From NCBI GenBank assembly GCA_964536015.1, contig CAZHVS010000012.1, positions 29,434 through 93,433 of the forward strand: a stretch of 64,000 nucleotides of DNA, written 5' to 3'. Below are positions 9,952 to 43,066 of the stretch, in pieces. The notes under the pieces were generated by a model. It was not told where the DNA came from, did not search any database, and worked only from the letters and a program-made list of their open reading frames with translations. How positions within the stretch are numbered: the first letter of the stretch is position 1; each line of letters starts with the position of its first letter. Origin of the DNA: an uncultured Ignavibacteriaceae bacterium. Lineage in GTDB: Bacteria; Bacteroidota; Ignavibacteria; Ignavibacteriales; Ignavibacteriaceae. The translations under genes and the position numbers were made by a program.

Positions 9952-9982
9952 ATTATAAAGAATAGAAAAGGTAAATTAATTT

Positions 9983-10252: not shown

Positions 10253-10269
10253 GCCGTTTAAAATATTTT

Positions 10270-10306: not shown

Positions 10307-10309
10307 AAA

Positions 10310-27278: not shown

Positions 27279-27283
27279 GAATT

Positions 27284-27631: not shown

Positions 27632-27669
27632 AAACGATTCGATACATAACGAAATAGAAAGAGGTCAGA

Positions 27670-28089
27670 ATGAAAATATTAATTTTGTGTACAGGTAATT
27701 CGTGCCGCAGCCAGATGGCTGAAGGATTTTTAAAATCATTTGATGATAAGCTCGAAGTTTTTAGCGCTGGAACGAATCCTGCTTATAAAGTTAGTTCTCA
27801 TGCCATTAGGGTAATGAAAGAAATTGGAATTGATATATCTGCAAATAAACCGAAGGATGTTTCCAATTTCCTGGGCGAATCATTTGATTATGTTATTACC
27901 GTTTGTGATAATGCAAAAGAAACCTGTCCTGTTTTTTCGGGGAAAGTAACTAAGCGACTGCATATTGGTTTTGAAGATCCTGCAGAAGCTGAAGGCACAG
28001 AGGAAGAAGTACTTGTTGTTTTTAGAAAAGTGAGAGATGAAATAAAAAATGATTTTTTCAATTTCTACGTAAATGAAATAAAAAAGTAA
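27670..28089 (+). CDS. arsC: arsenate reductase, thioredoxin-coupled LMW-PTP type
   Basis: P-loop CTGNSCRSQMAEG and the downstream Cys pair VCDNAKETCP. Confidence 0.9.
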   Translation: MKILILCTGNSCRSQMAEGFLKSFDDKLEVFSAGTNPAYKVSSHAIRVMKEIGIDISANKPKDVSNFLGESFDYVITVCDNAKETCPVFSGKVTKRLHIGFEDPAEAEGTEEEVLVVFRKVRDEIKNDFFNFYVNEIKK

Positions 28090-28109
28090 AATTTAGAAAG
28101 GATAAGACT

Positions 28110-28361
28110 ATGTTGAAAATTAAAGTTCTTGGCTCGGGTTGTGCAAACTGTATAAATCTTGAAAAGCTATGCAGAGAAGTTGTCACCGAAAACAGTATTG
28201 ATGCAGAAATAGAAAAGGTAACTGATTTTAATGAAATTATGAACTATGGAATAATGATGACCCCAGGGTTGGTTGTAAATGAAAGAGTAATTCATAGTGG
28301 TAAATTGCCTACAAAATCAACTTTAACTCAGTGGCTAATTAATGAACTGGCAAAAGACTAA
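28110..28361 (+). CDS. small thioredoxin-fold 'redox-active disulfide protein 2'-type protein
   Basis: 83 aa. MLKIKVLGSGCANCINLEKL contains the CxxC. It is a paralog of 34129..34368. Confidence 0.8.
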   Translation: MLKIKVLGSGCANCINLEKLCREVVTENSIDAEIEKVTDFNEIMNYGIMMTPGLVVNERVIHSGKLPTKSTLTQWLINELAKD

Positions 28362-28392
28362 TTATTTAGTTCAAACAATAGGAGAAAATAAA

Positions 28393-28941
28393 ATGGATAA
28401 TTCAAAAGAATGGCATTGGTTTAAAGGAGGAATATTCGTTTCTCTTTTGTCTGTTGCTACATATTTTATTTTTGCAGCAATTGCTGAAAGGAACTACCCT
28501 TTTGGTATAACAGCAGGGTTCGGTTTTATTGCCGGAAAATTTGGCTCTTTGTTCGAAGCGTTAAACAATAATCCGGCAATAAAAAGATATACTGAAAAGC
28601 CTGATGCATTTATCGAATTTTTTATTTTAATAGGAATAATATTAGGCGGTTATACTGCAAAAAAAACATCAGGCACTTTTTCTGTTGAAAACATTCCTGC
28701 GGTTTGGGAAAAATATCATGGTAAAAACCCGATAAAAAGATATTTATTTGTTTTTGCCGGAAGCATTTTGTTGGGTTATGGCGCTGCATTATCAAGTGGT
28801 TGTACAACAGGAAATATTCTTCAAGGCTGGGCACATCTTTCATTAGGTAGCATAGTTGCCGGTGCTTCGTTTTTTGCTGCAGGAATTTTAGTTGCAAGAA
28901 TTCTTTATCCTAAAATAGGAGCGAACAATGATCATAATTAA
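28393..28941 (+). CDS. YeeE/YedE-family sulfur/selenium-compound transporter, N-terminal half protein
   Basis: Multi-TM protein with conserved SSGCTTGN motif. I prefer the ATG at 28393 (AGGAG 8 nt upstream) over the ORF-track start at 28342. Confidence 0.75.
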   Translation: MDNSKEWHWFKGGIFVSLLSVATYFIFAAIAERNYPFGITAGFGFIAGKFGSLFEALNNNPAIKRYTEKPDAFIEFFILIGIILGGYTAKKTSGTFSVENIPAVWEKYHGKNPIKRYLFVFAGSILLGYGAALSSGCTTGNILQGWAHLSLGSIVAGASFFAAGILVARILYPKIGANNDHN

Positions 28942-29470
28942 TATTCTTTTCGGCTTAATTGTTGGATTCCTCTTTGGATTTATTCTTTCTAAAACCGGTA
29001 TAACAAAATATCCAAGAGTAATAGGAATGCTTTTATTAAAAGATTTTAAAATTCTTAAGTTTATGTTAACAGCGGTAACCTCTTCTTTAATTTTGTTCCA
29101 TTTATTCGGAGATTTAGGTCTATTAAAAGTTGCTCCTAAAAATCTTGATTGGGGAAAACTGGTTGGGGGTTTATTATTCGGAACAGGAATGGGATTACTT
29201 GGTTATTGTCCCGGTACAATGGCTGCTAGAATTGGAGAAGGAAAGAAGGAAGCTGTCTTTGCATTCTTTGGTATGGCATTTGGAATTTTTATATATGCTC
29301 TAACCATCAAACCTGTTAAAGAAACATTTTTATCGTCTGAGATAAATGGAGATATTTTCCTTCAACTTGGTTTGAATAAATGGTTAGTGATTCTTCCCGC
29401 TGCGGCTCTTTTTATTGGAATAATTTATTTTGTTAATAAAAAAATCAGCGATAACAATCATATATTTTAA
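28928..29470 (+). CDS. YeeE/YedE-family transporter, C-terminal half protein
   Basis: Multi-TM protein with GYCPGT motif. Overlaps the preceding half by 14 nt (translational coupling). Confidence 0.75.
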   Translation: MIIINILFGLIVGFLFGFILSKTGITKYPRVIGMLLLKDFKILKFMLTAVTSSLILFHLFGDLGLLKVAPKNLDWGKLVGGLLFGTGMGLLGYCPGTMAARIGEGKKEAVFAFFGMAFGIFIYALTIKPVKETFLSSEINGDIFLQLGLNKWLVILPAAALFIGIIYFVNKKISDNNHIF

Positions 29471-29478
29471 GGATTTAA

Positions 29479-30246
29479 ATGGAAAATATATCTATAGGCT
29501 TTATCGGTGGTGGCAGAATAACTAAGATTTTCTTTCGACGTTTATCCAAAGATGAAAAATATGCGGATTTTTGCGTGAGTGATTGTAATGAGGAATTACT
29601 ATCTTTTTACAAATCATCTAATGTTGAAACAACTTCAGACAACAATATTCCTGCAAAAAGAGACATTGTATTCATAGCATTGCATCCCCCTGTTTTTATG
29701 CAAGTTCTCGAAGAAATAAAAAATTCTTTTAGTGAAAAAACTATTTTAATTTCTTTAGCACCAAAGATTACTATTGAAAAAATGTCAACTCAATTAAATG
29801 GACATAAAAAAATTGTTCGTTCAATTCCTAATTCACCAACAATGATTGGTCTTGGATATAATCCCTTATCTTTTTCTAAAAATTTTCCTTCAGATGAAAA
29901 AAAGATTGTTTTCGAACTATTTGAAAACTTTGGAAAATGGTTTGAAGCTGAAGAAAATAAATTAGAAGCATATGCTTTAATTACAGCTATGGGTCCAACA
30001 TATTTTCAATTTCAGTATAAGAGACTATTTGAACTTGCAAAGTCTTTTGGAATGAATGAACAGGAAGCAAGGGAAGGAATATTTAATATGTTGATTGGAA
30101 CAGCAAATCTTGTGTTTAATAGCAAATTCAATTATGATCAAGTCAACGACTTAATTCCTGTGAAACCACTTGAAGATGACCACGAGAAAATTGAAAATAT
30201 TTTTAATAATAAATTATTACCGCTTTTTAATAAACTAAAGAACTAG
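29479..30246 (+). CDS. NAD(P)-binding pyrroline-5-carboxylate-reductase-like oxidoreductase
   Basis: N-terminal Rossmann motif [13 protein letters not shown] and a ProC-like C-terminal helical domain. Confidence 0.5.
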
Positions 30247-30251
30247 AAACC

Positions 30252-31292
30252 ATGGAAGCTATAACAAAAAAACTCTCATTCCTTGACAGATATCTTACGC
30301 TCTGGATTTTTCTTGCAATGTTTATTGGAGTGTTTTCTGGTTATCTGTTTCCAGGAATTGTTGATTTCTGGAATTCATTTCAGAGCGGGACAACAAATAT
30401 TCCCATTGCAATTGGTTTGATTTTAATGATGTACCCACCGCTCGCCAAAGTTAAATACGAAGAGCTTGGTGACGTTTTCAAAAATGTGAAAGTACTTACT
30501 TTGTCTCTTGTTCAAAACTGGATAATCGGACCTATTCTTATGTTCTTTCTCGCAATAATTTTTCTTCCGGATTATCCCGAATATATGGCGGGATTGATTT
30601 TGATTGGGCTTGCAAGATGCATTGCTATGGTAATTGTGTGGAATGAACTTGCAAAAGGAGATACTGAATATGCAGCGGGTCTGGTTGCTTTTAATTCAAT
30701 TTTCCAGGTTTTGTTTTTCTCTGTTTATGCTTATGTGTTTCTAACCGTTTTTCCTTCCTGGTTAGGATTAAAGACATTTGCTGTTGATATTACAATTGGA
30801 CAAATAGCTGAATCCGTTTTCATTTATCTCGGCATACCATTCATAGCCGGTATGATTACACGCTTCACTCTACTAAAACTAAAAAGTAAAGAGTGGTACG
30901 AGAAAAAATTTATTCCTAAGATTTCGCCTATTACCTTAATCGCTCTGCTATTTACAATTGTTGTTATGTTTTCTCTTAAAGGCGAATACATTGTAAAAAT
31001 TCCAATTGACGTAATAAGAATAGCAATACCTTTGGTGCTTTATTTTGTAATTATGTTTTTTGTTTCGTTTTATATGGGACAAAAAGTTGGAGCTGATTAT
31101 GCAAAAACTGCAACGCTCTCCTTTACTGCGGCCAGCAACAACTTTGAACTTGCCATTGCAGTTGCAATTGCTGTATTTGGAATAAATTCAGGTGAAGCTT
31201 TTGCTGCTGTTATTGGTCCGCTAGTGGAAGTACCAGTATTAATTAGTCTGGTCAATGTTGCCATTTGGTTTAAGAAAAAAATCTTTGTTTAA
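30252..31292 (+). CDS. acr3: ACR3-family arsenite efflux transporter
   Basis: [17 protein letters not shown]-terminus, 10-TM layout and the conserved GLARCIAMV Cys motif of Acr3. Confidence 0.9.
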
Positions 31293-31317
31293 AATTTATT
31301 AATATGCTGGGTTAAGA

Positions 31318-32127
31318 ATGAAAACTGAAAATAAGCTTAAGGACATTGTTAAAGAAAAATATGGAAAAATAGCTTTCGCTGCTAAATCTACTGGATGTTG
31401 TAATTCGTCAACTTCCTGTTGTAACAATTCTTCAAGCGTTGAATTTATTATGATAGGAGATGAGTATAAAAATTTAAACGGGTATGTCCCCGATGCGGAT
31501 CTCGGTTTAGGTTGTGGTTTGCCAACTGAAGTTGCTGGCATTAAAGAGGGAGATATAGTTTTAGACCTTGGTTGTGGTGCTGGTAATGATGTTTTTATTG
31601 CTCGTTCTGTTGTCGGAGAAAAAGGAAAAGTTATCGGTATTGATATGACCGCTGAAATGATTGAGAAAGCAAAGAATAATAATTCATTGACTAATTTTGA
31701 TAATGTTGAATTTCGACTTGGAGAAATTGAATCTCTGCCAGTTGATGATAATTCTATAGATGTTGTAATAAGCAATTGTGTCCTTAATCTTGTTCCTGAT
31801 AAAGAGAAAGCTTTTAAAGAAATTCTAAGAGTACTTAAACCCGGGGCTCACTTCTGTATTTCTGACACAGTATTAAATGGAGAATTACCGGAAGAATTTA
31901 AAAAATCAGCCGAGTTATACACGGGTTGTATCTCTGGTGCACTAAAAAAAGATGATTATTTAAATATCATTTTCAAAACTGGTTTTAATAATGTCGAAAT
32001 AGTAAAATCAAAAGAAATTAATTTACCGGAAGAAATTTTGCAAAAACATCTTTCGTCAGATGAATTAAAACAATTTAAGAAAAATAGCGTGGGAATTTTC
32101 AGCATTACCATAAAAGGAAAGAAGTAA
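31318..32127 (+). CDS. arsM: arsenite S-adenosylmethionine methyltransferase
   Basis: KYGKIA start region, N-terminal Cys pairs (GCCNSSTSCC), SAM motif VLDLGCGAGNDV, and conserved Cys in SNCVLNL and TGCISGA. Confidence 0.85.
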   Translation: MKTENKLKDIVKEKYGKIAFAAKSTGCCNSSTSCCNNSSSVEFIMIGDEYKNLNGYVPDADLGLGCGLPTEVAGIKEGDIVLDLGCGAGNDVFIARSVVGEKGKVIGIDMTAEMIEKAKNNNSLTNFDNVEFRLGEIESLPVDDNSIDVVISNCVLNLVPDKEKAFKEILRVLKPGAHFCISDTVLNGELPEEFKKSAELYTGCISGALKKDDYLNIIFKTGFNNVEIVKSKEINLPEEILQKHLSSDELKQFKKNSVGIFSITIKGKK

Positions 32128-32135
32128 ATTTTATT

Positions 32136-33440
32136 ATGAACTGGAAAGAACAATATAAATCATTTTTGTGGGTATCAGGATTTTTTCTGCTTGCATACTT
32201 TATGCCCATTGAAACAGAAAAATTTAAAAATGCAATTATTGATGCTTTTACACTTGCAAAATGGTATGCACAAGAACATGTTTTACTTTGCCTTGTACCT
32301 GCTTTTTTTATCGCTGGTACGATTGCAGTGTTTATAAGTCAGGCTGCTGTTATAAAATATCTTGGTGGAAAAGCAAAAAAATGGGTTGCATATACAGTGG
32401 CTGCAACAAGCGGGACAATTTTAGCTGTTTGTTCCTGTACTGTTTTACCATTGTTTTCATCAATACATAAAAGAGGAGCTGGACTGGGTCCGGCAATAGC
32501 ATTTCTTTATTCGGGTCCGGCAATAAATATTCTTGCTATAATTTTAACAGCAAGAATACTTGGATTTGAACTTGGTATTGCCCGCGTTATCGGAGCCGTT
32601 TCGTTCAGTGTTATAATTGGATTAGTCATGTCTTTCATTTACCGAAAAGAAGAAAAAGAAAGAAACGGCAACAACACCGTTGTTCCAGAGATAGAAGAAT
32701 CCAGACCTATCTGGCAAACAACTCTTCACTTCTTTATTCTTGTTGCAATACTTGTATTTGTCAACTGGGGAAAACCTTCAAATGAAACCGAAGGTTTCTG
32801 GTATTTTATGTTTGCAAACAAATGGTTTATAACATCCATCTTTGGTGCAGGATTCGCATTCTCTTTAATATACATAATAAAAGTTAAAAAACTCTTTGTT
32901 GTTTTAGGAACCGCCTCTGTTATTATTTCGGCTTATTTCTTTTACCACACCCCCACAATTCCTTTTGTTGTAGGTGTAATTACAACAACTATTGCGTTAA
33001 CTTTTAGTGATGATGAACCAAATCAATGGCTTGGTGAGACCTGGGGATTTGCAAAACAAATTATGCCTCTTCTCGGTGCGGGTGTTTTAGTTGCGGGATT
33101 TCTTCTCGGCTCAGCCGAAGGAAATGGAGGAATAATTCCAAAAGATTGGATTTATGCTCTTGTTGGAGGAAACTCTTTATTCTCTAATCTTTTTGCTTCA
33201 GTTACAGGGGCATTTATGTACTTTGCAACTTTAACTGAAATACCGATACTTCAAGGCTTGATAAAAAATGGAATGGGAAAAGGTCCGGCACTTGCTTTAC
33301 TTCTTGCTGGCCCGGCTTTATCACTACCAAATATGCTTGTAATCAGGAGCGTAATAGGTACACAGAAAACAGTTGTATATGTTTCCCTTGTAATAATAAT
33401 GGCTACAATAACAGGTATAATTTATGGTTGGATATTTTAA
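32136..33440 (+). CDS. UPF0718/DUF318-type permease (ArsP-like organoarsenical permease family)
   Basis: Polytopic membrane protein with the CSC motif (AVCSCTVLPLF) characteristic of this permease family. Located next to arsM. Confidence 0.65.
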   Translation: MNWKEQYKSFLWVSGFFLLAYFMPIETEKFKNAIIDAFTLAKWYAQEHVLLCLVPAFFIAGTIAVFISQAAVIKYLGGKAKKWVAYTVAATSGTILAVCSCTVLPLFSSIHKRGAGLGPAIAFLYSGPAINILAIILTARILGFELGIARVIGAVSFSVIIGLVMSFIYRKEEKERNGNNTVVPEIEESRPIWQTTLHFFILVAILVFVNWGKPSNETEGFWYFMFANKWFITSIFGAGFAFSLIYIIKVKKLFVVLGTASVIISAYFFYHTPTIPFVVGVITTTIALTFSDDEPNQWLGETWGFAKQIMPLLGAGVLVAGFLLGSAEGNGGIIPKDWIYALVGGNSLFSNLFASVTGAFMYFATLTEIPILQGLIKNGMGKGPALALLLAGPALSLPNMLVIRSVIGTQKTVVYVSLVIIMATITGIIYGWIF

Positions 33441-33461
33441 ACAAAGTCAAGAAAACAAAAT

Positions 33462-34127
33462 ATGAAGACCTTTTGTATCATACTCATTTTTATCTTCTGC
33501 GCTGAGAATTATTCTTCTACTAATTTATATGAACGAATGCGCTCTATCATTTCAGAAATAAACATTGAACTAAACGATAATAAATTACCGCGAAAAAGCG
33601 ATGTGTCAAGGCTTAATAAATTAATCTACAATTTAAAGAAAACAGAAAATCTTAAAGAAGATAAAAAGCAAGATATTGATTATATAATCAAAGTAAATGA
33701 ATTATTTAATAGCTTTAAAACTTTCAATATTGTATTTAAAGAACGCATTGAGGTTGATTCATTAAAAAAAATATTTAGAATCGTTAACAGTAAATTCAAT
33801 TCCATTGCAGGTAATTATTTTTATAAGAAAGTAATAAAATCAACAAAAATTAAAATAATATTCTTTTCAACCTCAATGTCGTGTGAATGCACTTTAGAGA
33901 TGTGTTACAAACAAGAATCCGAAATTCAAAAACTATATAAGAATAATTTCAATAAATTTGAGTATGCAACTATCGACTGTTTTGGTAATTTTGAATTAAT
34001 GTCAGAATATGGAATAGGATATATCCCCGTTGCCGTTATTACAGACTCAAACAATAATGAAATTAAAAGATTTGAAAGAGATGAAAATTTATTTAATAAT
34101 TTATTAACTTTTTTTAATGGAGAATAA
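33462..34127 (+). CDS. hypothetical secreted protein with a C-terminal thioredoxin-like region carrying CxC-x4-C
   Basis: Signal-like N-terminus. The C-terminal KIKIIFFSTSMSCECTLEMC...GIGYIPVAVI resembles a Trx fold with a cis-Pro loop. I recognise no family. Confidence 0.55.
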   Translation: MKTFCIILIFIFCAENYSSTNLYERMRSIISEINIELNDNKLPRKSDVSRLNKLIYNLKKTENLKEDKKQDIDYIIKVNELFNSFKTFNIVFKERIEVDSLKKIFRIVNSKFNSIAGNYFYKKVIKSTKIKIIFFSTSMSCECTLEMCYKQESEIQKLYKNNFNKFEYATIDCFGNFELMSEYGIGYIPVAVITDSNNNEIKRFERDENLFNNLLTFFNGE

Positions 34128-34128
34128 A

Positions 34129-34368
34129 ATGATAGCTGTTAAAATACTCGGCACCGGCTGTAAAAAGTGCCAGAATCTTGAAAACAAAGTAAGAGAACTT
34201 GTGGCATTAAACAATATTAGCGCAACTATAGAAAAGGTTACCGATATACAAGAAATGATGGCTTATGGAATAATGATGACCCCGGGATTGGTTATAAATG
34301 AAAAAGTAAAAAGCTCTGGTATAATTCCAACGGATGAGCAAATTCTAACATGGCTTAAGGAAAATTAA
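34129..34368 (+). CDS. small thioredoxin-fold 'redox-active disulfide protein 2'-type protein (second copy)
   Basis: MIAVKILGTGCKKCQNLENKV..., paralogous to 28110..28361 (shared YGIMMTPGLV). I prefer the ATG at 34129 with GGAG upstream; the ORF track starts at 34117. Confidence 0.8.
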   Translation: MIAVKILGTGCKKCQNLENKVRELVALNNISATIEKVTDIQEMMAYGIMMTPGLVINEKVKSSGIIPTDEQILTWLKEN

Positions 34369-34370
34369 TT

Positions 34371-34742
34371 ATGAAGTTAACTGGTTTTTTAATTACAATT
34401 TTTATGATTGTTTTATCTTTGTATTCATTCCCTCAAAACAACAATCAGATTAAACCAAAAGTAACATTTATCGAACTCGGTTCTGATAAATGTATTCCCT
34501 GCAAACAAATGCAGCCAATATTAAAGTCTATTGAAAAAAAATATGGAAGTCAGATTAAAGTAATTTTTTATGATGTATGGAAAGATGATAAGCCTGCCAA
34601 AAAATATGGAATTCAACTTATACCTACACAAGTTTTTTTAGATGAAGCAGGAAAAGAATTTTTCAGGCATGAAGGTTTTTATCCAGAAGCCGAAATCGAT
34701 AAACTATTACAAAAAAAAGGGTTAAAAACTATTGCTGAATAA
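34371..34742 (+). CDS. periplasmic thioredoxin-family protein (TlpA/Trx-like)
   Basis: Signal/anchor segment, CIPC active site and cis-Pro loop LIPTQVF. Confidence 0.8.
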   Translation: MKLTGFLITIFMIVLSLYSFPQNNNQIKPKVTFIELGSDKCIPCKQMQPILKSIEKKYGSQIKVIFYDVWKDDKPAKKYGIQLIPTQVFLDEAGKEFFRHEGFYPEAEIDKLLQKKGLKTIAE

Positions 34743-34766
34743 AATCGGCATTATTAAAAGAAAATT

Positions 34767-35468
34767 ATGATTGAAGAAATTTTCACTGCTTTAAGTAACG
34801 CTCTTTATCAAAATTATTGGATTGCATTGCTTGCCTCTTTTGGATGGGGAGTTTTATCTATTCTTTTATCTCCCTGTCATCTATCCAGCATTCCGCTTGT
34901 TGTTGGATATATAAGCTCACAAGGCAGGATATCTCTTTGCAGAACATTTAATATTTCACTGATTTTTTCTGTTGGAATATTAATTACAATTACCGCAATC
35001 GGAATAATAACAGCAGCACTTGGCAGATTAATGGGCGATGTTGGTTCTATTGGAAATTATCTTGTCGCGGGAATTTTCTTTTTGGTAGGTCTATATCTAT
35101 TAGATGTAATTAAAATCGATTGGAATAGAACTGCATTAAAACAAACTAAATCAAAAGGGATATTGGCTGCATTACTTCTGGGTTTGCTATTTGGCATTGC
35201 ACTTGGACCCTGCACATTCGCTTATATGGCTCCTGTACTTGGTGTAGTGTTTCAAACTGCAAAGACAAATTTTATTTCAGCTGCATTACTGCTCCTATCA
35301 TTTGGTCTTGGTCATTGTTCTGTAATTGTTGTCGCTGGCACACTTACCAATCAAGTACAGAAATACTTAAACTGGTCAGACGAATCTAAAACTATACTAT
35401 GGATAAAAAAAATATGTGGCGTACTTGTTATCCTTGGGGGAATATATTTGCTTTATAATGTAAATTAA
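34767..35468 (+). CDS. ccdA: CcdA/DsbD-type transmembrane thiol:disulfide electron transporter
   Basis: Six TM helices with the two conserved membrane Cys motifs LSPCHLSSIP and LGPCTFAYMAP. Confidence 0.85.
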   Translation: MIEEIFTALSNALYQNYWIALLASFGWGVLSILLSPCHLSSIPLVVGYISSQGRISLCRTFNISLIFSVGILITITAIGIITAALGRLMGDVGSIGNYLVAGIFFLVGLYLLDVIKIDWNRTALKQTKSKGILAALLLGLLFGIALGPCTFAYMAPVLGVVFQTAKTNFISAALLLLSFGLGHCSVIVVAGTLTNQVQKYLNWSDESKTILWIKKICGVLVILGGIYLLYNVN

Positions 35469-35610
35469 TTTATCTGTTTAATACAATTTTACATGTCTGT
35501 TAAATTAAACTCTTTTTCTAAATTCTCATCTACGGTGTAAGAACAATTCATTTTGTTGATTTAATTCTTTATAATATTTTAGGGTATAAAATAATTTAAA
35601 TTTCTGACTT

Positions 35611-36057
35611 ATGCCCCACAAAGAAAAAAAATATCATGAGTTTGCTGAGTTAATCTGCGAGCTTACACGCTTTTGCAATATTAAAGAAGAGTATTTTGCT
35701 GCAAGTTTTCATCTTTCACCTACAGAGGTGAAATTTCTTAAATTATTCACATTTCAGGATGTTATATCTATTAAAAACTTACGTGAAAAATTAAAACTAA
35801 GCCCTGGACGAGTAACTCATATTTTAAAGTCTTTGGAAGCCAAAAAACTTCTTTCGCGAATTCCCGATGAAACAGATAAACGCAACCAGATTGTCAAATT
35901 ATTGCCCAAAGCTATTCCTCTTATTAAAAACTTACAATCGAACTATATAAACTTGCACAAAGATATTTTAAAAAATGTAAAACAAACCGAAATCAAAAAT
36001 ATTTATTCTTCGCTTTTCATTCTCGTTAGTGTATTCAAAAAATGGGTAGAAGAATAA
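35611..36057 (+). CDS. MarR-family transcriptional regulator
   Basis: 148 aa with a winged-HTH core (ISIKNLREKLKLSPGRVTHILKSLEAKKLLSRIPDETDKRN). Confidence 0.75.
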   Translation: MPHKEKKYHEFAELICELTRFCNIKEEYFAASFHLSPTEVKFLKLFTFQDVISIKNLREKLKLSPGRVTHILKSLEAKKLLSRIPDETDKRNQIVKLLPKAIPLIKNLQSNYINLHKDILKNVKQTEIKNIYSSLFILVSVFKKWVEE

Positions 36058-36105
36058 AAGTTTATACTATAAAACAATGCACAACTTAAACAATAGAGAA
36101 ATATT

Positions 36106-37683
36106 ATGAAGAAAGTAATTGTAATCCTTGCTTTTATTGGATTGCTGGTTATTATCGCGATTGGAACTCTTTCACAAAAGGAAATTGATCCTTCCGGCAT
36201 AATGAAACTTAAAGAAAAATATTCCAAGAAGGAAAAACCCAAAGTTGATCATAGCAGATTTACTGTTCTGCAACAAAAATTTACTACACCACAACAAGTT
36301 ACCAAAGCCTGCGAATCATGCCATAATCTGACGGCTCACCAGGTCATGAATTCTAATCACTGGAACTGGGAACGTGAAGAATATGTACAAAACCGCGGAG
36401 TTATTTATCTTGGAAAAGGAAATGCCATAAATAATTTCTGTATTGGAACGCAGGGGAATGAAAAAAGTTGCGCCAAGTGTCATATTGGATTTGGTATGGA
36501 TAAAAACAAAACTGTGTTTACCGATTCATTGAATATTGATTGTCTTGTTTGTCACGATAACTCTGAAACATATGCTAAAGCAAGCGAACAAGGCGGAGCT
36601 CCGGAAATGACTCTTAACTTCAACCTTATCGCTCAGAGTGTTGGAAAGCCCAAAAGAAGCAACTGCGGAGTTTGTCATTTCTTTGGCGGCGGTGGTAATG
36701 GAGTTAAACACGGTGACCTTGAAATGACACAGTTTGAACCTTCAAAGGATATTGACATTCACATGGCTGTTGATGGAGCTAACTTAAAATGTATTGATTG
36801 CCACACAACTGAACAGCATAATATTTCTGGCAAATTATATTCGCTTTCATCAATGAATCACAATCGTAACAATTGCGAACAATGTCATACAGATGTTCCT
36901 CACAAAGATGACATTATTAATGAACATTCTTTAAAGGTCGCCTGTCAGACCTGCCATATACCAACCTATGCAAAAGGAAATTCAACAAAAATGTACTGGG
37001 ATTGGTCAACTGCAGGAAAATTAAAAGACGGTGAACCTTACGAAGAAGATGACAGCCTTGGAAACCACTCTTATTTATCAATTAAAGGTAGTTTTGTGTG
37101 GGCAAGAAATGTAAAGCCTGATTATATCTGGTTTAACGGAACAGCTTCTCATTATCTTGAAGGAGATAAAATACAGGACACCACCAAACCGCTTGTATTA
37201 AATCAATTACATGGTTCTTACAATGATGATGATTCTAAAATTATTCCCGTAAAAATTCACATAGCAAAGCAACCTTACGATCCTGTAAACAGAATTTTAA
37301 TTCAACCAAAATTATATTCAGATAAAGCTGGTGAGGGAGCCTTCTGGAAAGATTTTAACTGGTTGACCGCTGCTCAAGTTGGAATGAAAGATATAGGCTT
37401 ACCCTTCAGTGGAAAAATTTCTTTTATAAAAACTGAAATGTACTGGCCACTAAATCATATGGTTGCAAGTAAAGAAAACACTGTCCAATGCAACGAATGT
37501 CACACGCACGAAAATTCACGCCTTGCAGGTTTAAATGATTTTTATTTGCCCGGCAGAGATTATTCTTCTCTGGTCGATTCAGGAGGAAAGTGGCTGTTGA
37601 TTTTAACTTTAATCGGAATATTTATTCACGCTTCTATACGGTTTTATTCTTACAGAAAAATTAAAAATGGAGCATCAAAATGA
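36106..37683 (+). CDS. octaheme c-type cytochrome, tetrathionate-reductase (Otr) family
   Basis: Eight CxxCH motifs (CESCH, CAKCH, CLVCH, CGVCH, CIDCH, CEQCH, CQTCH, CNECH) in 525 aa. N-terminal anchor/signal and an extra C-terminal TM helix. Confidence 0.7.
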   Translation: MKKVIVILAFIGLLVIIAIGTLSQKEIDPSGIMKLKEKYSKKEKPKVDHSRFTVLQQKFTTPQQVTKACESCHNLTAHQVMNSNHWNWEREEYVQNRGVIYLGKGNAINNFCIGTQGNEKSCAKCHIGFGMDKNKTVFTDSLNIDCLVCHDNSETYAKASEQGGAPEMTLNFNLIAQSVGKPKRSNCGVCHFFGGGGNGVKHGDLEMTQFEPSKDIDIHMAVDGANLKCIDCHTTEQHNISGKLYSLSSMNHNRNNCEQCHTDVPHKDDIINEHSLKVACQTCHIPTYAKGNSTKMYWDWSTAGKLKDGEPYEEDDSLGNHSYLSIKGSFVWARNVKPDYIWFNGTASHYLEGDKIQDTTKPLVLNQLHGSYNDDDSKIIPVKIHIAKQPYDPVNRILIQPKLYSDKAGEGAFWKDFNWLTAAQVGMKDIGLPFSGKISFIKTEMYWPLNHMVASKENTVQCNECHTHENSRLAGLNDFYLPGRDYSSLVDSGGKWLLILTLIGIFIHASIRFYSYRKIKNGASK

Positions 37684-38348
37684 GCAAGAAACAGGTTTAT
37701 ATATACAAAAGTTTTGAAAGGTTCTGGCACTGGATGCAGGCAATACTTATATTTTTTCTTGCTTTTACCGGTTTTGAAATTCATGGCACTTATACTTTTT
37801 TTGGTTATCGAGAAGCCGTCAGATACCATAATATCTCTGCATACTTACTAATTGCTTTAATTGTGTTTGCAATTTTCTGGCACTTAACTACAGGTGAATA
37901 CAAACAATATATTCCAACTTTCAAAAATATTAAAGCACAGCTTGATTATTATATATTCGGGATCTTCCGTAATACCCCGCACCCGACAAAAAAAACTGTA
38001 TTAAGTAAACTTAATCCATTACAAAAACTAACTTACTTTGGTTTGAAGATTCTGGTTATTCCTTTAAGTGTTACTTCTGGTTTACTTTATATGTTCTACC
38101 GCTATCCCAGCAAACAAGGAGTTGAAGCTATCAATATTCAATCGCTTGAAGTAATTGCTATATTTCACACTATTGCTGCAATTCTTCTTGTAATTTTTAT
38201 TGTAACACATCTTTACTTAATAACAACCGGAGAAAACTTAACATCAAACCTAAAAGCAATGTTAACCGGTTATGAAGAACTGGAAGATGAACATCATCAA
38301 GAAGAAAAAAATGATGACAAAAATTTATCAACACAAAATTCAGATTAG
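37680..38348 (+). CDS. membrane di-heme cytochrome b (PhsC / hydrogenase b-type cytochrome family)
   Basis: FERFWHWMQAILIFFLAFTGFEIHG start and four TM helices with conserved His. ATGA overlap with the octaheme gene. Confidence 0.7.
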   Translation: MSKKQVYIYKSFERFWHWMQAILIFFLAFTGFEIHGTYTFFGYREAVRYHNISAYLLIALIVFAIFWHLTTGEYKQYIPTFKNIKAQLDYYIFGIFRNTPHPTKKTVLSKLNPLQKLTYFGLKILVIPLSVTSGLLYMFYRYPSKQGVEAINIQSLEVIAIFHTIAAILLVIFIVTHLYLITTGENLTSNLKAMLTGYEELEDEHHQEEKNDDKNLSTQNSD

Positions 38349-38356
38349 AGGACTTT

Positions 38357-38875
38357 ATGCAAGATACTAAATATATGAATCCGTACCTAGCAGGAGTATT
38401 GCTTGGACTTTTACTTCTTGCAACAATATATATTACCGGCAGAGGTCTTGGTGCAAGCGGAGCAATCAAAAGTTATGCTGTAACTGTTGTTGAAAAAGTT
38501 GCACCAACACACGCTTCAGAAACAAAATTTTACCAAGAATATAGCAAAGAACATTCAGGCACAAGTCCATTAATGAACTGGCTTGTGTTTGAGGTTACAG
38601 GAGTTTTAATTGGTGCATTTTTGTCCGGACTAATATCAAACAGGTTGAACTTTAAGTTTGAAAAAGGTCCTCGTTCAACAACAAAGATTAGGGTTGCAGG
38701 AGCATTAATTGGCGGTTTGCTCTGGGGAATTGGTTCTCAACTTGGTCGTGGTTGTACAAGTGGCGCCGCATTAAGTGGACTGGCAGTAATGTCAACTGGT
38801 GGAATTATTACAATGTTTGCAATATTCGCCGGCGCTTATGTTTTCGCCTACTTTTTCAGAAAAATGTGGATTTAA
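38357..38875 (+). CDS. YeeE/YedE-family transporter, N-terminal half protein (second set)
   Basis: GRGCTSGAALSG motif and multi-TM layout. Confidence 0.75.
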   Translation: MQDTKYMNPYLAGVLLGLLLLATIYITGRGLGASGAIKSYAVTVVEKVAPTHASETKFYQEYSKEHSGTSPLMNWLVFEVTGVLIGAFLSGLISNRLNFKFEKGPRSTTKIRVAGALIGGLLWGIGSQLGRGCTSGAALSGLAVMSTGGIITMFAIFAGAYVFAYFFRKMWI

Positions 38876-38890
38876 TAAGGAGATTTTAAA

Positions 38891-40084
38891 ATGGGTCCTT
38901 TGGTTCCGGATATTATCAGCAACAATTTAAATTTTATTGTCGCATTAGTAATTGGAGTTTTGTTCGGTGCAATTTTAGAACAAGCCGGATTTTCAACTTC
39001 AAAAAAACTTGTAGGATTATTCTATGGCTACGATTTTACTGTGCTAAGAGTTTTCTTTACTGCAGGAATTGTTGCAATGATTGGTGTAATGATTTTTGCA
39101 CATTATGGATTGCTCGATATGAGTCTTATTTATATTAATCCAACATTCCTCTGGTCAGCAATTATTGGAGGAATAATTATGGGACTTGGATTTATACTTG
39201 GAGGATTTTGTCCCGGCACGAGTGTATGTGCTGCCGCTATTGGAAAAATTGATGCAATGTTATTTATAGTTGGTGCCTTCTTTGGTGTTTTAATTTTTGC
39301 AGAAGGTTATCCTGTTTTTGAGCCTTTATATAAAGCAGCAAACTTAGGAAGTCCAAGGCTTTTTGAAACACTTGGAATGTCACAAAATATTTTTGCATTT
39401 TTAATGGTTTCAATGGCTTTAACTGCTTTCTGGTTTACATCAATTATTGAAAACAAAGTTAATAAAGTAGATAAACCGACTATTCGCTTTACACCGTATT
39501 ACATCGGTTTGTCTGCAATTGGATTAATGCTTGTAATTTCTGCTTTTATTTTTCCAGAGAAGAAAGAGTCGCTTACACAATTGGTTGAAAACATCGATTT
39601 TGTTAAATCTTATCCTCTCGAAACAATGACAGTTGATGAATTTGCTTATCGTCTGATAGATGAAACTGATAATAAATTTCAGATAATTGACTTCAGACCT
39701 GAAAAAGAATTTTCAAAAGAGAGTTTGCCAAAATCCACTTTGTTCACTCTTGATAATCTGTTCGAAAAAGAGCCAAGTCAACTTTTAAGATTGAAGAAAA
39801 GAATAATCGTTTTTGTTGCTAACGATGAGTTAACTGAAAGAAAAATGGCAATTATTGCAAACGAGCTTGGTTATAAAAGGATTAAAATTCTTAAAGGTGG
39901 ACTAAATTCATTTAGAGAGCAAATATTAAATTATCAACCGATTGAAAACCCCAAAAATATTGATGAAGTTTATCAAAATCGTTTTCGTTCTAAGGCGAAA
40001 GTTGTTATTCCGGTCTTAATTCAAAACAATAAATCAACTGGACCAGTAAAGAAAGAACAAAAACGAGTAATAGGCGGATGTTAA
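38891..40084 (+). CDS. YeeE/YedE-family transporter C-terminal half fused to a rhodanese-like domain
   Basis: GGFCPGTS motif in the membrane part. The C-terminal ~130 aa (FQIIDFRPEKEF...IIVFVANDELTERKMAIIANELGYKRIKILKGGLNSF) is rhodanese-fold, and the loop position normally holding the active-site Cys reads VAND (apparently no Cys). Confidence 0.7.
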   Translation: MGPLVPDIISNNLNFIVALVIGVLFGAILEQAGFSTSKKLVGLFYGYDFTVLRVFFTAGIVAMIGVMIFAHYGLLDMSLIYINPTFLWSAIIGGIIMGLGFILGGFCPGTSVCAAAIGKIDAMLFIVGAFFGVLIFAEGYPVFEPLYKAANLGSPRLFETLGMSQNIFAFLMVSMALTAFWFTSIIENKVNKVDKPTIRFTPYYIGLSAIGLMLVISAFIFPEKKESLTQLVENIDFVKSYPLETMTVDEFAYRLIDETDNKFQIIDFRPEKEFSKESLPKSTLFTLDNLFEKEPSQLLRLKKRIIVFVANDELTERKMAIIANELGYKRIKILKGGLNSFREQILNYQPIENPKNIDEVYQNRFRSKAKVVIPVLIQNNKSTGPVKKEQKRVIGGC

Positions 40085-40089
40085 AATAA

Positions 40090-40116
40090 AAGAGCCGGTT
40101 CAAGCCGGCTTTTTTA
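40090..40116. terminator. bidirectional rho-independent terminator between convergent genes
   Basis: AAAAGAGCCGG-TTCAAG-CCGGCTTTTTT: a GC-rich stem flanked by an A-run and a T-run. Confidence 0.7.
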
Positions 40117-41853
40117 TTGCTTTACCGCAATTCCAAGTCTTTTCATTCTCCTCCATAAAGTTGAAGGATTTATTTTTAAATCTTTTGCAGATTTATTTCG
40201 GTTACCATTATTTTTTTCCAGGACAGATATTATCAAATCCCTTTCAGCATTCTTAAGACTATTTAGCTCTGTTGTTTTAACCTTTACATTTGTACTTGTT
40301 TTAGTTTCAAGCAATCTTTTGGGTAAGCATTCATTCTGAATAATTTCTCCTCCGCATAAAACAAAACAATGTTCAATCACATTCTCCAACTCTCTTATAT
40401 TTCCAGGCCAATCGTAACTCATTAATACATTAAAGGCAGATGAGGAAAATTGTCTTATTTTTTTATTAAACTTTTGATTAAAGAATTCTATAAAATGATT
40501 TATTATCAAAGGCAGATCATCCATTCTTTCTCTTAATGGCGGAAGATGAATGTTGATAACGTTAATTCTATAAAACAAATCTTCTCGAAACCTTCCAGAT
40601 GTTATTTCTTCTAAAAGATTTTTATTTGTAGCTGCAATAATTCTGGAATTAATTTTTATTATTTTGTTTCCGCCAACTCTTTCAAATTCCCGGGTTTCCA
40701 AAACTCTTAGTAGTTTTGTTTGAACTGGAATTGAAAGATCTCCAATTTCATCAAGGAATAGAGTCCCGCCTTGAGAAAGCTCAAATTTTCCAATTTTTGT
40801 TTTTATTGCTCCAGTGAAAGCTCCTTTTTCATGACCAAATAATTCGCTTTCAATAAGAGTTTCAACAAACGCGCTGCAATTGACTGCAATAAAAGGTTCT
40901 GTTTTTCTTGAGCTATTGAGATGAATAGCTCGAGCTGCTAATTCCTTTCCTGTCCCACTTTCTCCTGTAATTAAAACGGTACTATCGGTTTGAGAAACAC
41001 TTTCAAGAACAGAAATAATCTGTCTGATTTCCTTATTCCTTCCAACAATATTTTCATACTTAAAAAAGTCGTGAAGGTGTGCTGATAAATTTTTTAATTC
41101 GGAAATATCAAGAAATGTCTCTATTGCCCCTATCTTTTCATTTTTATTATTTGTCAGGATGTTTGAATTTACTTTTATCGGTACTTTTTTACCACTTTTA
41201 TGAATGATCTCTAATTCATTCCCCAACATTGCTTTTCCATTTTGAAGAGTATGTTCCATATGACAGCCATTTTGACACAATGCTGAATTGAATATTTCCC
41301 AGCATTTTTTTCCAACAGCCTCAGACTTTTTATAACCAGTTATTTTTTCTGCCGAATTATTAAATGATGTAATCACCCAATCATTGCTGATTGTAAAAGT
41401 TCCTTCTATGTTGCTGTTAAAAATTGCGTCAAGTTTATTTTTCTGATCAATTAACTCCATAGTTTTTAATTGAATTTCCTCAGCAAGAGAAAGCATTTCT
41501 CTGGTATCTCTAAACACAAACACTACACTAAGGACGTTATTCTCTCTTGTGATTGGAGAAAGTGATGCAAGAACATTTTTAATGTTTCTTTTTTTATCCG
41601 TAATATTAAACGAAAGGTTATTCAAAGACAGATTTTCTTCCAGCGATTTCCGAATTGTCTTTCTTTCTTCAAAATTTTTTAAAAATAGAAATTCAAATTT
41701 CTGTCCTATTACTTCATCTTCAGAAAACCCTGTTATCCTCGATGCTGCCTCATTAAAAACAATTATATTTTCATCTTTACCAATTACCACAATACCATCA
41801 GGGACAATCAATGATTCTCTATTTTTATCAATAATTTGTTGTACATCAGCCAT
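40114..41853 (-). CDS. sigma-54-dependent transcriptional activator with tandem PAS sensor domains
   Basis: Two PAS-like regions, an AAA+ core with GESGTGKE and the GAFTGA loop ([10 protein letters not shown]), and a C-terminal Fis-type HTH. I prefer the ATG at 41853 (MADVQQ); the ORF-track start at 41865 is TTG. Confidence 0.9.
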   Translation of the reverse strand: MADVQQIIDKNRESLIVPDGIVVIGKDENIIVFNEAASRITGFSEDEVIGQKFEFLFLKNFEERKTIRKSLEENLSLNNLSFNITDKKRNIKNVLASLSPITRENNVLSVVFVFRDTREMLSLAEEIQLKTMELIDQKNKLDAIFNSNIEGTFTISNDWVITSFNNSAEKITGYKKSEAVGKKCWEIFNSALCQNGCHMEHTLQNGKAMLGNELEIIHKSGKKVPIKVNSNILTNNKNEKIGAIETFLDISELKNLSAHLHDFFKYENIVGRNKEIRQIISVLESVSQTDSTVLITGESGTGKELAARAIHLNSSRKTEPFIAVNCSAFVETLIESELFGHEKGAFTGAIKTKIGKFELSQGGTLFLDEIGDLSIPVQTKLLRVLETREFERVGGNKIIKINSRIIAATNKNLLEEITSGRFREDLFYRINVINIHLPPLRERMDDLPLIINHFIEFFNQKFNKKIRQFSSSAFNVLMSYDWPGNIRELENVIEHCFVLCGGEIIQNECLPKRLLETKTSTNVKVKTTELNSLKNAERDLIISVLEKNNGNRNKSAKDLKINPSTLWRRMKRLGIAVKQ

Positions 41854-41870
41854 ATTGTTTTCCAAAAGAT

Positions 41871-41940
41871 ATATTGCAACAATACAAAGAATAGTGCATT
41901 AATGCAATCTTATTGCAATTATCAATGCATAATTGCAATC
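41871..41940. promoter_or_regulatory. cluster of short TGCA/TTGCAA-core palindromes (candidate regulator binding sites)
   Basis: ATTGCAAC (41873-80), TGCATTAATGCA (41895-906), ATTGCAAT (41912-19), ATGCAT (41925-30) and ATTGCAAT (41931-38), in the divergent intergenic region between the activator and the radical SAM gene. Confidence 0.35.
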
Positions 41941-42034
41941 AACCTAAGAAAATGGTCTTCATTTTGAACTGGAATAGCAGAATAGCTCTGGTATGAATTT
42001 AGAGTATTATTATTTTGTAAAATGAGCTGTAATA

Positions 42035-43066
42035 ATGAAAAATAGAATAAGCCACTGGTTAAGGAAAAAAGTAGAATTACTTTGTCTATATTTAGAAAAA
42101 AGCATTCTTTCAGACCCATCGCTTCGATGTAAAATAGTATATGGTCCCATTCGTTCAAGAAGGCTCGGTTTAGTACTTGGAGTTAACAATATAAAACCAA
42201 ATCTATGTTCGTATAATTGTATATATTGTCCGGGTGGTAAAACGACCTGTTGTTCTGTTTGTACGAGTAATTGTTTGTCCCCCTATGAATTATTCGTCTC
42301 TGTAAAAAAGAAGCTCGATGAAATAAACAAAAGCGGAAAAAAAATTGATTACATTTTGTTTGCCGGAAGCGGTGAACCAGCACTTGACACAAGTCTTTCT
42401 CAAGAAATTCAACTTCTCAGAGAATTTGACCACAAAATAGCTGTTTTTACTAATGCATCGTTATTGTGGAATGAAAACATACAGGAAAATTTATTATATG
42501 CCGATTATATATCAGTTAAAATTGATACTGTAAACGAAAATACCTGGTTAAAAATTAATAGACCGCACGAAAGATTAAACTACGATTTAATTCTGAATGG
42601 CATAAAACAATTTTCTAAAAAATTTAAAGGAACATTAACTACTGCTACGACCTTACTTAAGGACATAAATGATAACGAGGAAGAAGTAATTCAACTTGCA
42701 AAATTTTTAAATTCAATAAAAATTAAAACCGCTTATTTTTTGACTCCAATTTATCCCCCGGCTGAAGATTACGCTATAAGTCCCGAGGAAGAAACTCTTG
42801 AAAAGTTATCACAAATAATTACAGCTAACATTCATAACTCGTGTAAACTTTGTTGCCCGGACAAAGAAGAGTTTTTTATTACAAATGATTTCGAAAATGA
42901 ACTAATCGGACTACTAAAAGTTCACCCGGTAGACAAAGACTCGGTAACGGCATTTGCAAATGCTAACAATAAAATTGAAAATTTAAGAGAAATGATTTCA
43001 AATAATCTAATTGGCGAACAGATTTTTTCGAGTAAGAAATATTTTGTAAAAACTGAAACAAAATAG
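42035..43066 (+). CDS. radical SAM protein
   Basis: IVYGPIRSRRLGLVLGVNNIKPNLCSYNCIYCPGG carries the CxxxCxxC cluster motif, preceded by the YGP..SRRLG..LG signature shared by a set of uncharacterised radical SAM enzymes. Confidence 0.8.
   Translation: MKNRISHWLRKKVELLCLYLEKSILSDPSLRCKIVYGPIRSRRLGLVLGVNNIKPNLCSYNCIYCPGGKTTCCSVCTSNCLSPYELFVSVKKKLDEINKSGKKIDYILFAGSGEPALDTSLSQEIQLLREFDHKIAVFTNASLLWNENIQENLLYADYISVKIDTVNENTWLKINRPHERLNYDLILNGIKQFSKKFKGTLTTATTLLKDINDNEEEVIQLAKFLNSIKIKTAYFLTPIYPPAEDYAISPEEETLEKLSQIITANIHNSCKLCCPDKEEFFITNDFENELIGLLKVHPVDKDSVTAFANANNKIENLREMISNNLIGEQIFSSKKYFVKTETK

Follow-up and report, generated by a model that had tools for sequence, protein, structure and literature searches.

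Positions 35611-40084 of the DNA analysed here, a 64,000-nucleotide (nt) stretch of contig CAZHVS010000012.1 from an uncultured Ignavibacteriaceae bacterium (hereafter the window, to which all coordinates refer), carry five plus-strand genes. They encode a MarR-family regulator, an octahaem cytochrome c of the Otr family, a membrane cytochrome b (CytB) and the two halves of a split YeeE-type sulfur channel. The second half-channel (YeeE_B-Rhd) continues into a rhodanese domain that has lost its catalytic cysteine and ends in a flexible-looking arm closed by Gly-Gly-Cys. The module is real, conserved and well defined, and its parts come from known families. We propose, with middling confidence, that it is a MarR-controlled, menaquinol-fed periplasmic reductase of sulfur compounds alongside which a tethered cysteine arm supplies a YeeE-type relay. 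The comparative evidence for a sulfur substrate of this membrane-anchored Otr clade, drawn from the channel and the putative carrier that it shares with Phs/Psr-type reductases, appears strong.

The physiological substrate of the octahaem tetrathionate reductase (OTR) has been unsettled ever since its first description in 2004. Genetic work of 2026 on Shewanella again gave no sign that it takes part in tetrathionate respiration, and proposed sulfite (PMC12949373). The initial annotation of this DNA, made from the letters alone, had been aware of no characterisation of the gene combination, and our literature search agreed with it in finding no paper that characterises it. A study of metagenome-assembled genomes (MAGs) records 'Otr + cytochrome b561' as a cluster of one Ignavibacteriae bin and does not mention YeeE genes (PMC7509429). 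The same search found no description of a Cys-less rhodanese with a Gly-Gly-Cys arm, nor of its linkage to Otr. As far as we found, the architecture as a whole is undescribed: a membrane-anchored Otr with its cytochrome b is combined with a split YeeE channel and with an arm on a dead rhodanese, predicted to be periplasmic, that is shared with Phs/Psr-type enzymes.

Gene content and conservation of the operon

The genes and protein segments of the operon are as follows.

35611-36057, plus strand: marR, MarR-family regulator, 148 amino acids (aa) (PF01047)
36106-37683, plus strand: otr, Otr-family octahaem cytochrome c, 525 aa (TIGR04315)
37680-38348, plus strand: cytB, membrane cytochrome b of the PhsC/FdnI/HyaC type, 222 aa (PF01292)
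38357-38875, plus strand: yeeE_A, PmpA-like half channel, 172 aa (PF04143)
38891-40084, plus strand: yeeE_B-rhodanese, 397 aa (PF04143 and PF00581)
38891-39556, plus strand: membrane part of YeeE_B, a PmpB-like half channel with two extra transmembrane (TM) helices
39620-39928, plus strand: Cys-less rhodanese-fold domain, aa 244-346, predicted to be periplasmic (PF00581, AlphaFold2 (AF2) model, Foldseek)
40028-40081, plus strand: polybasic C-terminal arm, aa 380-397, with the end KRVIGGC-COOH

Successive genes are separated by 48, -4, 8 and 15 nt, the ATG of cytB overlapping the TGA of otr (ATGA). A search of the GTDB species set with YeeE_B-Rhd gave at least 497 relatives, and the best 80 loci, mostly from Ignavibacteriota MAGs, were compared. 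Otr was present in 74/80 of them, CytB in 77/80 and YeeE_A in 79/80, with gene order and strand unchanged; the missing genes coincided with short loci or contig ends. Constancy of order and strand in 74-79 of 80 loci shows that the association of these genes is not due to chance. Otr was also counted, above its family cutoff, in 301 genomes drawn evenly from the phylum. It was found in 46/301. All 24 fused YeeE_B-Rhd genes of this sample lay 1.9-2.9 kb from an otr gene and none lay elsewhere (Fisher p=4e-23, phylogeny not corrected for). The link between Otr and the YeeE pair, which had been noticed in a single sequence, is thus real and strongly conserved in both the 80-locus survey and the 301-genome sample. 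Ignavibacteriota MAGs that carry the operon are widespread, coming from sediments, groundwater and bioreactors, and the operon is therefore of relevance to cryptic sulfur cycling.

In the phylum sample, the YeeE module is missing from about half of the Otr genes. Otr accompanied by CytB only was observed in one clade of ~20 small genomes and in one further locus (L089), and a soluble Otr of 457 aa was found alone in three genomes. In the Otr tree, the YeeE-linked sequences form one clade (support 100/97), in line with a single origin, with the Otr-CytB-only lineages as its sister and the soluble forms apart.

Some loci depart from the common layout. In the divergent locus L088 (G261:C7, 5824-10986), an Otr without C-terminal helix is found with YeeE_A and a YeeE_B-Rhd of 31% identity with the tail ...SGGLCS; next in order, CytB is replaced by a 630-aa protein in which a multihaem cytochrome c is fused to a cytochrome b domain, and MarR-like and OsmC-like genes lie downstream. 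In L014 (Kapaibacterium), the gene just 5′ of otr (4525-4881) encodes a 118-aa rhodanese with a signal peptide and the canonical loop VYCRSGSRSG, and is a further periplasmic sulfurtransferase in an Otr context. L011, L026, L030, L037, L045, L047, L054, L067 and others, with 57-74% identity, carry labels of other phyla or groups (Hyphomicrobiales, Myxococcota, Armatimonadota, Bdellovibrio, Acidobacteriota, Elusimicrobiales) and nest inside the Ignavibacteria clade; they reflect either horizontal transfer or mis-binned contigs.

The cytochrome had been assigned to the tetrathionate-reductase family from its haem motifs, and this assignment held. Its translation contains eight CxxCH motifs (CESCH, CAKCH, CLVCH, CGVCH, CIDCH, CEQCH, CQTCH and CNECH) and scores 562.1 bits against TIGR04315 (curated cutoff 375). 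Residues 53-468 align to the Shewanella OTR structure (PDB 1SP3) with E=1e-121. It groups with Otr and not with NrfA/HAO; grouping with the latter had been named as speaking against the assignment. A profile search showed otr to be single copy in the genome. In the alignment, K104 and C112 correspond to K56 and C64 of 1SP3, which we take to be the Lys that ligates the catalytic haem and the active-site Cys next to it, respectively. Both residues are invariant in 84 Otr sequences. The eight haems and these two residues are therefore shared with the OTR of Shewanella oneidensis MR-1.

The attachment to the membrane differs, however, from that of the soluble Shewanella prototype. In addition to an N-terminal signal or anchor, the protein has a C-terminal hydrophobic helix outside the part covered by 1SP3 (53-468 only); the hydrophobic cores are at aa 6-17 and 496-507. 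A basic tail comes after this C-terminal TM helix (aa 496-516, nt 37591-37653). The helix was seen only in copies with a CytB gene and was missing in the four copies without one. Whereas Shewanella OTR is soluble, with CymA proposed as its electron donor, the present Otr has this helix and a dedicated cytochrome b. A further difference from Shewanella OTR is the tight genetic linkage of the present protein to a regulator bearing thiols and to a sulfur channel equipped with a Cys arm. Within the C-terminal helix, after a conserved RLAxLxDFYxPGRD motif, H508 is conserved and R512 is invariant (nt 37627-37641); these residues may possibly make contacts, or even provide a haem ligand, at the interface with CytB.

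CytB matched PF01292 with 95.6 bits (cutoff 30.1). Its best NCBIfam model was PhsC (NF011582), at 108.8 bits and under the equivalog cutoff of 204, so that the protein is a relative and not an equivalog. His 17, 35, 50, 68, 101, 163 and 177 are invariant in 78 sequences, including the H163/H177 pair. The earlier proposal of a PhsC-like cytochrome b is consistent with this best model and these seven histidines. The proposal of a quinol-linked periplasmic reductase fits the restriction of the C-terminal Otr helix to CytB-bearing loci.

A comparable layout is known from formate dehydrogenase-N (FDH-N) and [NiFe] hydrogenase-1, in which the electron-transfer subunits have C-terminal TM anchors that pack against a PF01292 cytochrome b. 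The cytochrome b family is the same here, and again a redox subunit with one C-terminal TM helix is tied to a cytochrome b gene. Unlike in FDH-N and hydrogenase-1, a multihaem cytochrome c takes the place of the Fe-S subunit as redox partner, and its helix carries a conserved His and Arg.

Split channel, rhodanese domain and Gly-Gly-Cys arm

The two channel genes encode complementary parts of the Sulf_transp profile (PF04143). YeeE_A (83 bits, cutoff 27) matched profile positions 175-310 and YeeE_B (49 bits, same cutoff) positions 4-192. YeeE_A is thus the C-terminal and YeeE_B the N-terminal half, in the PmpA/PmpB arrangement. Scores against the TsuA equivalog models of NCBIfam (42.5 bits against a cutoff of 400, and 25.2 against 645) and against the YedE equivalog models lay far under the cutoffs. 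A sequence search with YeeE_B recovered the StYeeE structure (6LEO) weakly (E=0.083), and Foldseek searches of the PDB with the half-channel of the AF2 model, where the predicted local distance difference test score (pLDDT) is 45-75, did not recover it.

In the TsuA relay, sulfur passes from outside to inside via C293, C91 and C22 and then to Cys17 of the cytoplasmic YeeD (PMC11073785). In the module, residues 70-165 of YeeE_A align to StYeeE 236-325, placing C133 (GRGCTSG) opposite C293, and residues 18-137 of YeeE_B align to StYeeE 5-119, placing C107 (GGFCPGTS) opposite C91. C133 is invariant in 80 sequences; C107 is conserved in 100% and C113 in 91%. The C22 position falls in a gap of the YeeE_B alignment.

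As compared to TsuA/YeeE with TsuB/YeeD from Spirochaeta thermophila and E. coli (6LEO, 8K1R), the channel therefore belongs to the same PF04143 fold family and keeps two of three relay cysteines. Unlike TsuA, it is split into two PmpA/PmpB-type genes and has no equivalent of C22. Both systems also have an accessory part that adds one cysteine to the relay; in the TsuA system this is a cytoplasmic TusA-like protein, whereas here the accessory cysteine is predicted to be periplasmic and sits on a rhodanese scaffold.

Split YeeE halves are also known from Serratia sp. ATCC 39006, where the PmpA/PmpB type was described as 'not for assimilatory purposes' and relatives of this type were reported to take up zero-valent sulfur (PMC11582611; PMC10812762). 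The module resembles the Serratia pair in its two half-size genes, pmpA then pmpB, with one conserved Cys each. Unlike Serratia PmpB, the B half adds two TM helices, a rhodanese domain and the Gly-Gly-Cys arm, and the pair always stands beside a periplasmic reductase. A plain PmpA/PmpB half has ~130 aa, four TM helices and no extra domains; YeeE_B has 397 aa and six TM helices in the AF2 model, the two additional ones spanning aa 165-190 and 202-220.

Residues 257-343 of YeeE_B matched the rhodanese family PF00581 with 37.8 bits (cutoff 22.2). The AF2 model has a mean pLDDT of 73.5, with ~90 in the rhodanese domain and lower values in the TM part. In it, residues 244-346 adopt the rhodanese fold and residues 357-379 a helix, after which comes a low-pLDDT tail. 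In Foldseek searches of the PDB with this model, all significant matches (E<=0.001) and nearly all of the top 50 were rhodanese folds. The catalytic loop reads F-V-A-N-D-E; the pattern F-x-A-x-D-E is kept among orthologues and no Cys occurs in the catalytic column in any of 81 sequences.

The protein is however not devoid of a thiol in this region. It ends in KKEQKRVIGGC, and a KRxxGGC terminus was found in 79/80 orthologues, R392, G395, G396 and C397 being invariant in the orthologue alignment. C397 is the only Cys outside the membrane part. Of the earlier description as a Cys-less rhodanese, the missing loop Cys therefore stands, whereas the protein as a whole carries an invariant terminal Gly-Gly-Cys. 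The low pLDDT of the model suggests that the tip of the arm is flexible.

Several observations bear on the side of the membrane at which the arm is located. TsuA has nine TM helices, made up of an N-half, a central helix H7 and a C-half (PMC11582611, PMC11073785). YeeD binds the cytoplasmic face of TsuA, as studied with a construct joining YeeD to the C-terminus of YeeE (PMC11073785). From these two facts, a TsuA-type N-half is expected to be N-out/C-out. By analogy, TM5 of YeeE_B would replace H7 (out to in) and TM6 would lead back out.

The distribution of charges agrees with this arrangement. Over 81 YeeE_B sequences, the loops show the expected alternation: Lys plus Arg amount to 2.0 in loop 1 and 3.9 in the TM5-TM6 loop, against 0 both at the N-terminus and in loop 2, and the segment following TM6 is net acidic. 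The charge pattern of YeeE_A fits N-in/C-in, as expected for a TsuA C-half. In other Bacteroidota, unfused Rhd-GGC genes encode proteins of 212-221 aa whose only Cys is the terminal one, with ends KKKK..GGC or GGCS. The stand-alone proteins begin with a Sec-type signal (MKPR, ~15 hydrophobic residues and IIAAVPQN). Overall, TsuA homology, the six-TM model, the charge bias and the Sec-signal homologues indicate that the rhodanese domain and its arm are most likely periplasmic and do not form a cytoplasmic acceptor.

Known sulfur carriers offer partial parallels. The C-terminal GGCGG swinging arm of SoxY and the arm cysteines of DsrC, in which the Cys is penultimate, present sulfur to enzymes. 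The present arm is likewise a C-terminal peptide, apparently flexible, whose Gly-Gly-Cys could bind sulfur covalently and bring it from one active site to another. Unlike in SoxY and DsrC, it is polybasic, ends exactly at the Cys, is tethered to the membrane and extends from a rhodanese scaffold of unrelated fold. Membership in either family was considered and rejected, as no SoxY or DsrC match was obtained in Pfam or NCBIfam and the likeness is at the level of motif.

Another parallel is Sud, the periplasmic polysulfide-sulfur transferase that serves PsrABC in Wolinella succinogenes and has a canonical loop Cys. A secreted rhodanese-like sulfurtransferase in a Desulfurivibrio psr operon has been proposed to hand sulfur to YeeE (PMC12142623). 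Common to these and to the present domain is a periplasmic rhodanese fold attached to a quinol-linked sulfur reductase, with proposed delivery to the enzyme and/or to YeeE. In Sud and its relatives, which are soluble or lipoproteins, the thiol is that of the loop, whereas here the loop Cys is lost and the thiol is found on a terminal flexible arm. Unlike Sud, the domain is fused to the channel or, in the stand-alone form, signal-anchored.

Second reductase, proposed mechanism and alternatives

The channel and the arm are not confined to Otr loci. In L091 and L092, the trio YeeE_A, YeeE_B and Rhd-GGC directly follows a three-gene molybdenum enzyme, and the same arrangement was found in every one of the 16 Bacteroidales loci L093-L108 whose contig is long enough. 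With a molybdopterin subunit, a 4Fe-4S subunit and NrfD, the enzyme is PhsABC-like, and its catalytic subunit best matches PhsA, with 463-470 bits (under the equivalog cutoff of 694). In three loci from Lentimicrobiaceae/Bacteroidales MAGs (L104, L107 and L108), otr and cytB come immediately after the Rhd-GGC gene, giving an eight-gene cluster (~3900-12300) that encodes PhsA-like, PhsB-like, NrfD, YeeE_A, YeeE_B, Rhd-GGC, Otr and CytB. The presence of both reductases in one cluster suggests sequential steps of a sulfur pathway and not a simple substitution.

Channel plus arm thus appear to be a general accessory of periplasmic sulfur reductases and not specific to Otr. That one module serves two unrelated quinol-linked reductases, one of them from the thiosulfate/polysulfide family, is the strongest comparative argument for a sulfur-handling Otr clade. 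The initial annotation had taken the coupling of the cytochrome to the transporter as a sign of reduction of a chalcogen oxyanion linked to import of the product. The linkage on which it relied is sound, whereas the pairing turns out not to be Otr-specific, being found beside Phs/Psr-type enzymes as well.

The genome, which is 99.9% complete, contains no NIR_SIR (siroheme sulfite/nitrite reductase) domain and only weak PhsA-like fragments. Lack of this domain means that neither assimilatory nor energy-yielding reduction of sulfite is open to the cell, which apparently relies on sulfur at the reduced or sulfane level. Import of sulfite for cytoplasmic reduction was rejected as unlikely on the same ground.

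We propose the following sequence of events. Otr would be exported and held at the membrane by its C-terminal helix beside the di-haem cytochrome b. CytB would oxidise quinol, and electrons would flow via the haem chain to the Lys-ligated catalytic haem of Otr, to reduce a substrate that probably belongs to the tetrathionate, polythionate, polysulfide or thiosulfate class. The split PmpAB-type channel would lie beside the reductase, with the outer and the central TsuA relay cysteines retained, and its B subunit would run through the two extra helices into the periplasm, where it would bear the rhodanese scaffold, dead as a catalyst, and the polybasic arm of 18 residues. The arm thiol would pick up sulfur from the substrate or product of the reductase, as a persulfide or a thiosulfonate adduct, and present it to the C133-C107 relay for import. 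The polybasic stretch may attract anionic sulfur species, lower the pKa of the thiol and keep the arm near the membrane surface.

Import would be of use to this organism because, having no sulfite reductase, it must acquire sulfur at the reduced or sulfane level. Such a mechanism would carry the cysteine relay known from YeeE/TsuA outward, to the outer membrane face of the channel, and suggests a route by which anaerobes without sulfite reductase may gain sulfur from oxidised sulfur intermediates.

The 36-fold increase of otr expression under tetrathionate in sediment Acidobacteriota (PMC8528874) counts in favour of this mechanism, and several points weigh against it. That the arm is periplasmic, which class of substrate is reduced, in which direction sulfur is transported and how it is handed over are all inferred from comparisons of sequences and models. 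For the topology, these are homology, the positive-inside rule and a model of medium confidence, and the charge difference is modest. Purified OTRs from Shewanella and Beggiatoaceae favour nitrite and hydroxylamine far over tetrathionate, and deletion of otr in Shewanella had no tetrathionate phenotype (PMC12949373). The operon encodes no cytoplasmic acceptor of the TusA/YeeD type. A free periplasmic thiol would need a reducing partner and no conserved one was found in the 80 related loci, the CcdA/Trx genes that neighbour the operon in the window not being syntenic there.

A variant of the mechanism, which we regard as tentative and rather unlikely, makes the arm a co-substrate. Otr or the Phs/Psr-type enzyme would reduce an adduct bound to the arm (Cys-S-S-SO3- formed from tetrathionate, or Cys-S-Sn- from polysulfide), and the sulfane sulfur would then enter the channel, in a manner comparable to DsrC with DsrAB or SoxY with the Sox enzymes. 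Terminal-Cys swinging arms are indeed established for SoxY and DsrC. The arm is invariant, is tethered next to the reductase and serves two unrelated reductases, and Otr has the invariant active-site C112 beside its catalytic haem. Free tetrathionate is a poor OTR substrate in vitro (PMC12949373), which would be sensible if the real substrate were protein-bound. However, the arm would have to reach into the Otr active site, and the resemblance to SoxY and DsrC is motif-level only. Moreover, Otr does not generally need the arm, since about half of the otr genes of the phylum sample have no module. It is equally doubtful that the arm represents a new class of periplasmic sulfur carrier, a degenerate rhodanese with its thiol moved to the C-terminus that would act both as co-substrate and as the 'zeroth cysteine' of the relay. 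If true, reduction of carrier-bound sulfur would couple respiration-type reduction and sulfur import by covalent channelling, and could explain the poor turnover of free tetrathionate by purified OTR.

Other explanations do without a joint pathway or change its substrate or direction. Otr-CytB could be a quinol:nitrite or quinol:hydroxylamine reductase for respiration or detoxification, with the YeeE pair as an independent sulfur uptake system. In vitro, the OTRs characterised so far act best on nitrite and hydroxylamine (PMC12949373), the Ignavibacteriae MAG study allows nitrite reduction (PMC7509429), and Otr is related to the NrfA/HAO superfamily. The linkage is however too tight and too old for two independent systems, with a single clade and 24/24 fused modules adjoining otr. 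In addition, the same channel and arm accompany a Phs/Psr-type sulfur reductase elsewhere, and the regulators are Cys-bearing MarR, MerR or ArsR types and not nitric oxide- or nitrite-sensing ones; we hold this explanation to be very improbable.

Scarcely more probable is detoxification by reduction of selenite, tellurite or thio-arsenic compounds, with channel and arm moving Se or As-S species. The operon directly follows a long ars operon with a split YeeE pair of its own, stress responses are often under MarR-type control, and relatives of YedE are tied to selenium metabolism, though the NCBIfam matches here are weak, YedE and TsuA equivalog scores being far under their cutoffs. No SelD was found above cutoff in the genome, the ars adjacency is not conserved (ArsP or DsbD_TM in 0/80 loci), and the alternative partner enzyme best matches PhsA. 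A role in selenium assimilation was rejected as the main reading because SelD is missing above cutoff, and use of the YedE-like channel in selenophosphate-dependent selenium metabolism is unlikely on this ground. The same gap makes selenite, one of the substrates proposed by the initial annotation, unlikely as far as assimilation is concerned.

The channel could finally work in the opposite direction, moving cytoplasmic sulfane sulfur or thiosulfate out onto the arm for reduction to sulfide by Otr or Phs/Psr, as an electron sink or for disposal. PmpAB-type channels, which have no established direction, were described as 'not for assimilatory purposes' (PMC11582611); the operon has no gene for a cytoplasmic acceptor, and the equivalent of the cytoplasm-side C22 of TsuA is missing. 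Since the characterised relatives TsuA, SoxT and PmpAB relatives (zero-valent sulfur) all import, and a cell without sulfite reductase needs import of reduced sulfur more than its export, export seems to us a very slim prospect.

Regulation, boundaries and neighbouring genes

Elements outside the coding genes, and the gene that follows, are listed below.

35575-35593, plus strand: candidate MarR operator, inverted repeat (conservation in MarR-bearing loci)
40093-40110, both strands: bidirectional intrinsic terminator (terminator scan and fold energy)
40114-41865, minus strand: convergent gene for a sigma-54/PAS regulator

The regulator matched PF01047 with 33.1 bits (cutoff 24.6). No equivalog-level match was obtained in NCBIfam, where OhrR, MarR, SlyA and other models scored far under their cutoffs. 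Its C16 and C22 are conserved in 97% and 100% of 31 sequences, respectively. In the 80 loci, the position before otr is occupied by a MarR gene in 31, by a Cys-rich MerR gene in 12 and by an ArsR-like gene in 1. On the basis of these cysteines, thiol-based sensing of reactive sulfur species by MarR is plausible.

A 19-bp inverted repeat, TATTTTA-GGGTA-TAAAATA, lies 18 nt 5′ of the marR ATG. It is kept in 17/17 aligned upstream regions of MarR-bearing loci, whereas the intergenic DNA around it varies. The window contains no other match with <=2 mismatches, and in the fetched loci the repeat was found only just 5′ of marR, or of otr (L033, L035 and L059). From this pattern of conservation, the palindrome at 35575-35593 is likely to be the MarR operator. 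Between marR and otr, at ~36060-36078, a degenerate sequence picked out by eye, GTTTATACTATAAAAC, may be a second copy; it falls outside the 2-mismatch search and is tentative. The operator, the regulator cysteines, the relay cysteines and the arm cysteine are defined targets for testing the natural substrate of OTR.

A scan for sigma-70 promoters gave 33 sites against 27.8 expected and is thus of little use in this AT-rich DNA. No terminator was found in the 48-nt gap between marR and otr. At the other end, a 15-bp stem of -20.1 kcal/mol (z=-5.46; 0/200 shuffles fold equally well) starts 9 nt past the yeeE_B stop codon, with an A-tract on its 5′ side and a T-tract on its 3′ side, and occupies the 29-nt gap between yeeE_B and the convergent sigma-54/PAS gene. 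ORF (open reading frame) translation and folding thus reproduced what had first been described, five tightly spaced plus-strand ORFs that end at a strong bidirectional terminator. An Rfam scan of 35300-40300 returned nothing at gathering score, and three weak matches overlapping the terminator were deemed due to chance.

Directly upstream of the operon lies the ars operon (27259-35468), which holds a second, more distant split YeeE/YedE pair (28393-29560). In a whole-genome search this pair appeared as a match at G000:C12:58370-58993 with 26% identity, across stop codons. A functional link of the module to the adjacent ars operon and the CcdA/Trx genes was considered and rejected, none of these genes being syntenic in the 80 related loci. 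Beyond the terminator, the sigma-54/PAS regulator gene and a radical-SAM gene (40114-43066) adjoin the Otr module in only a minority of close relatives, in 10/80 and 5/80 loci, respectively.

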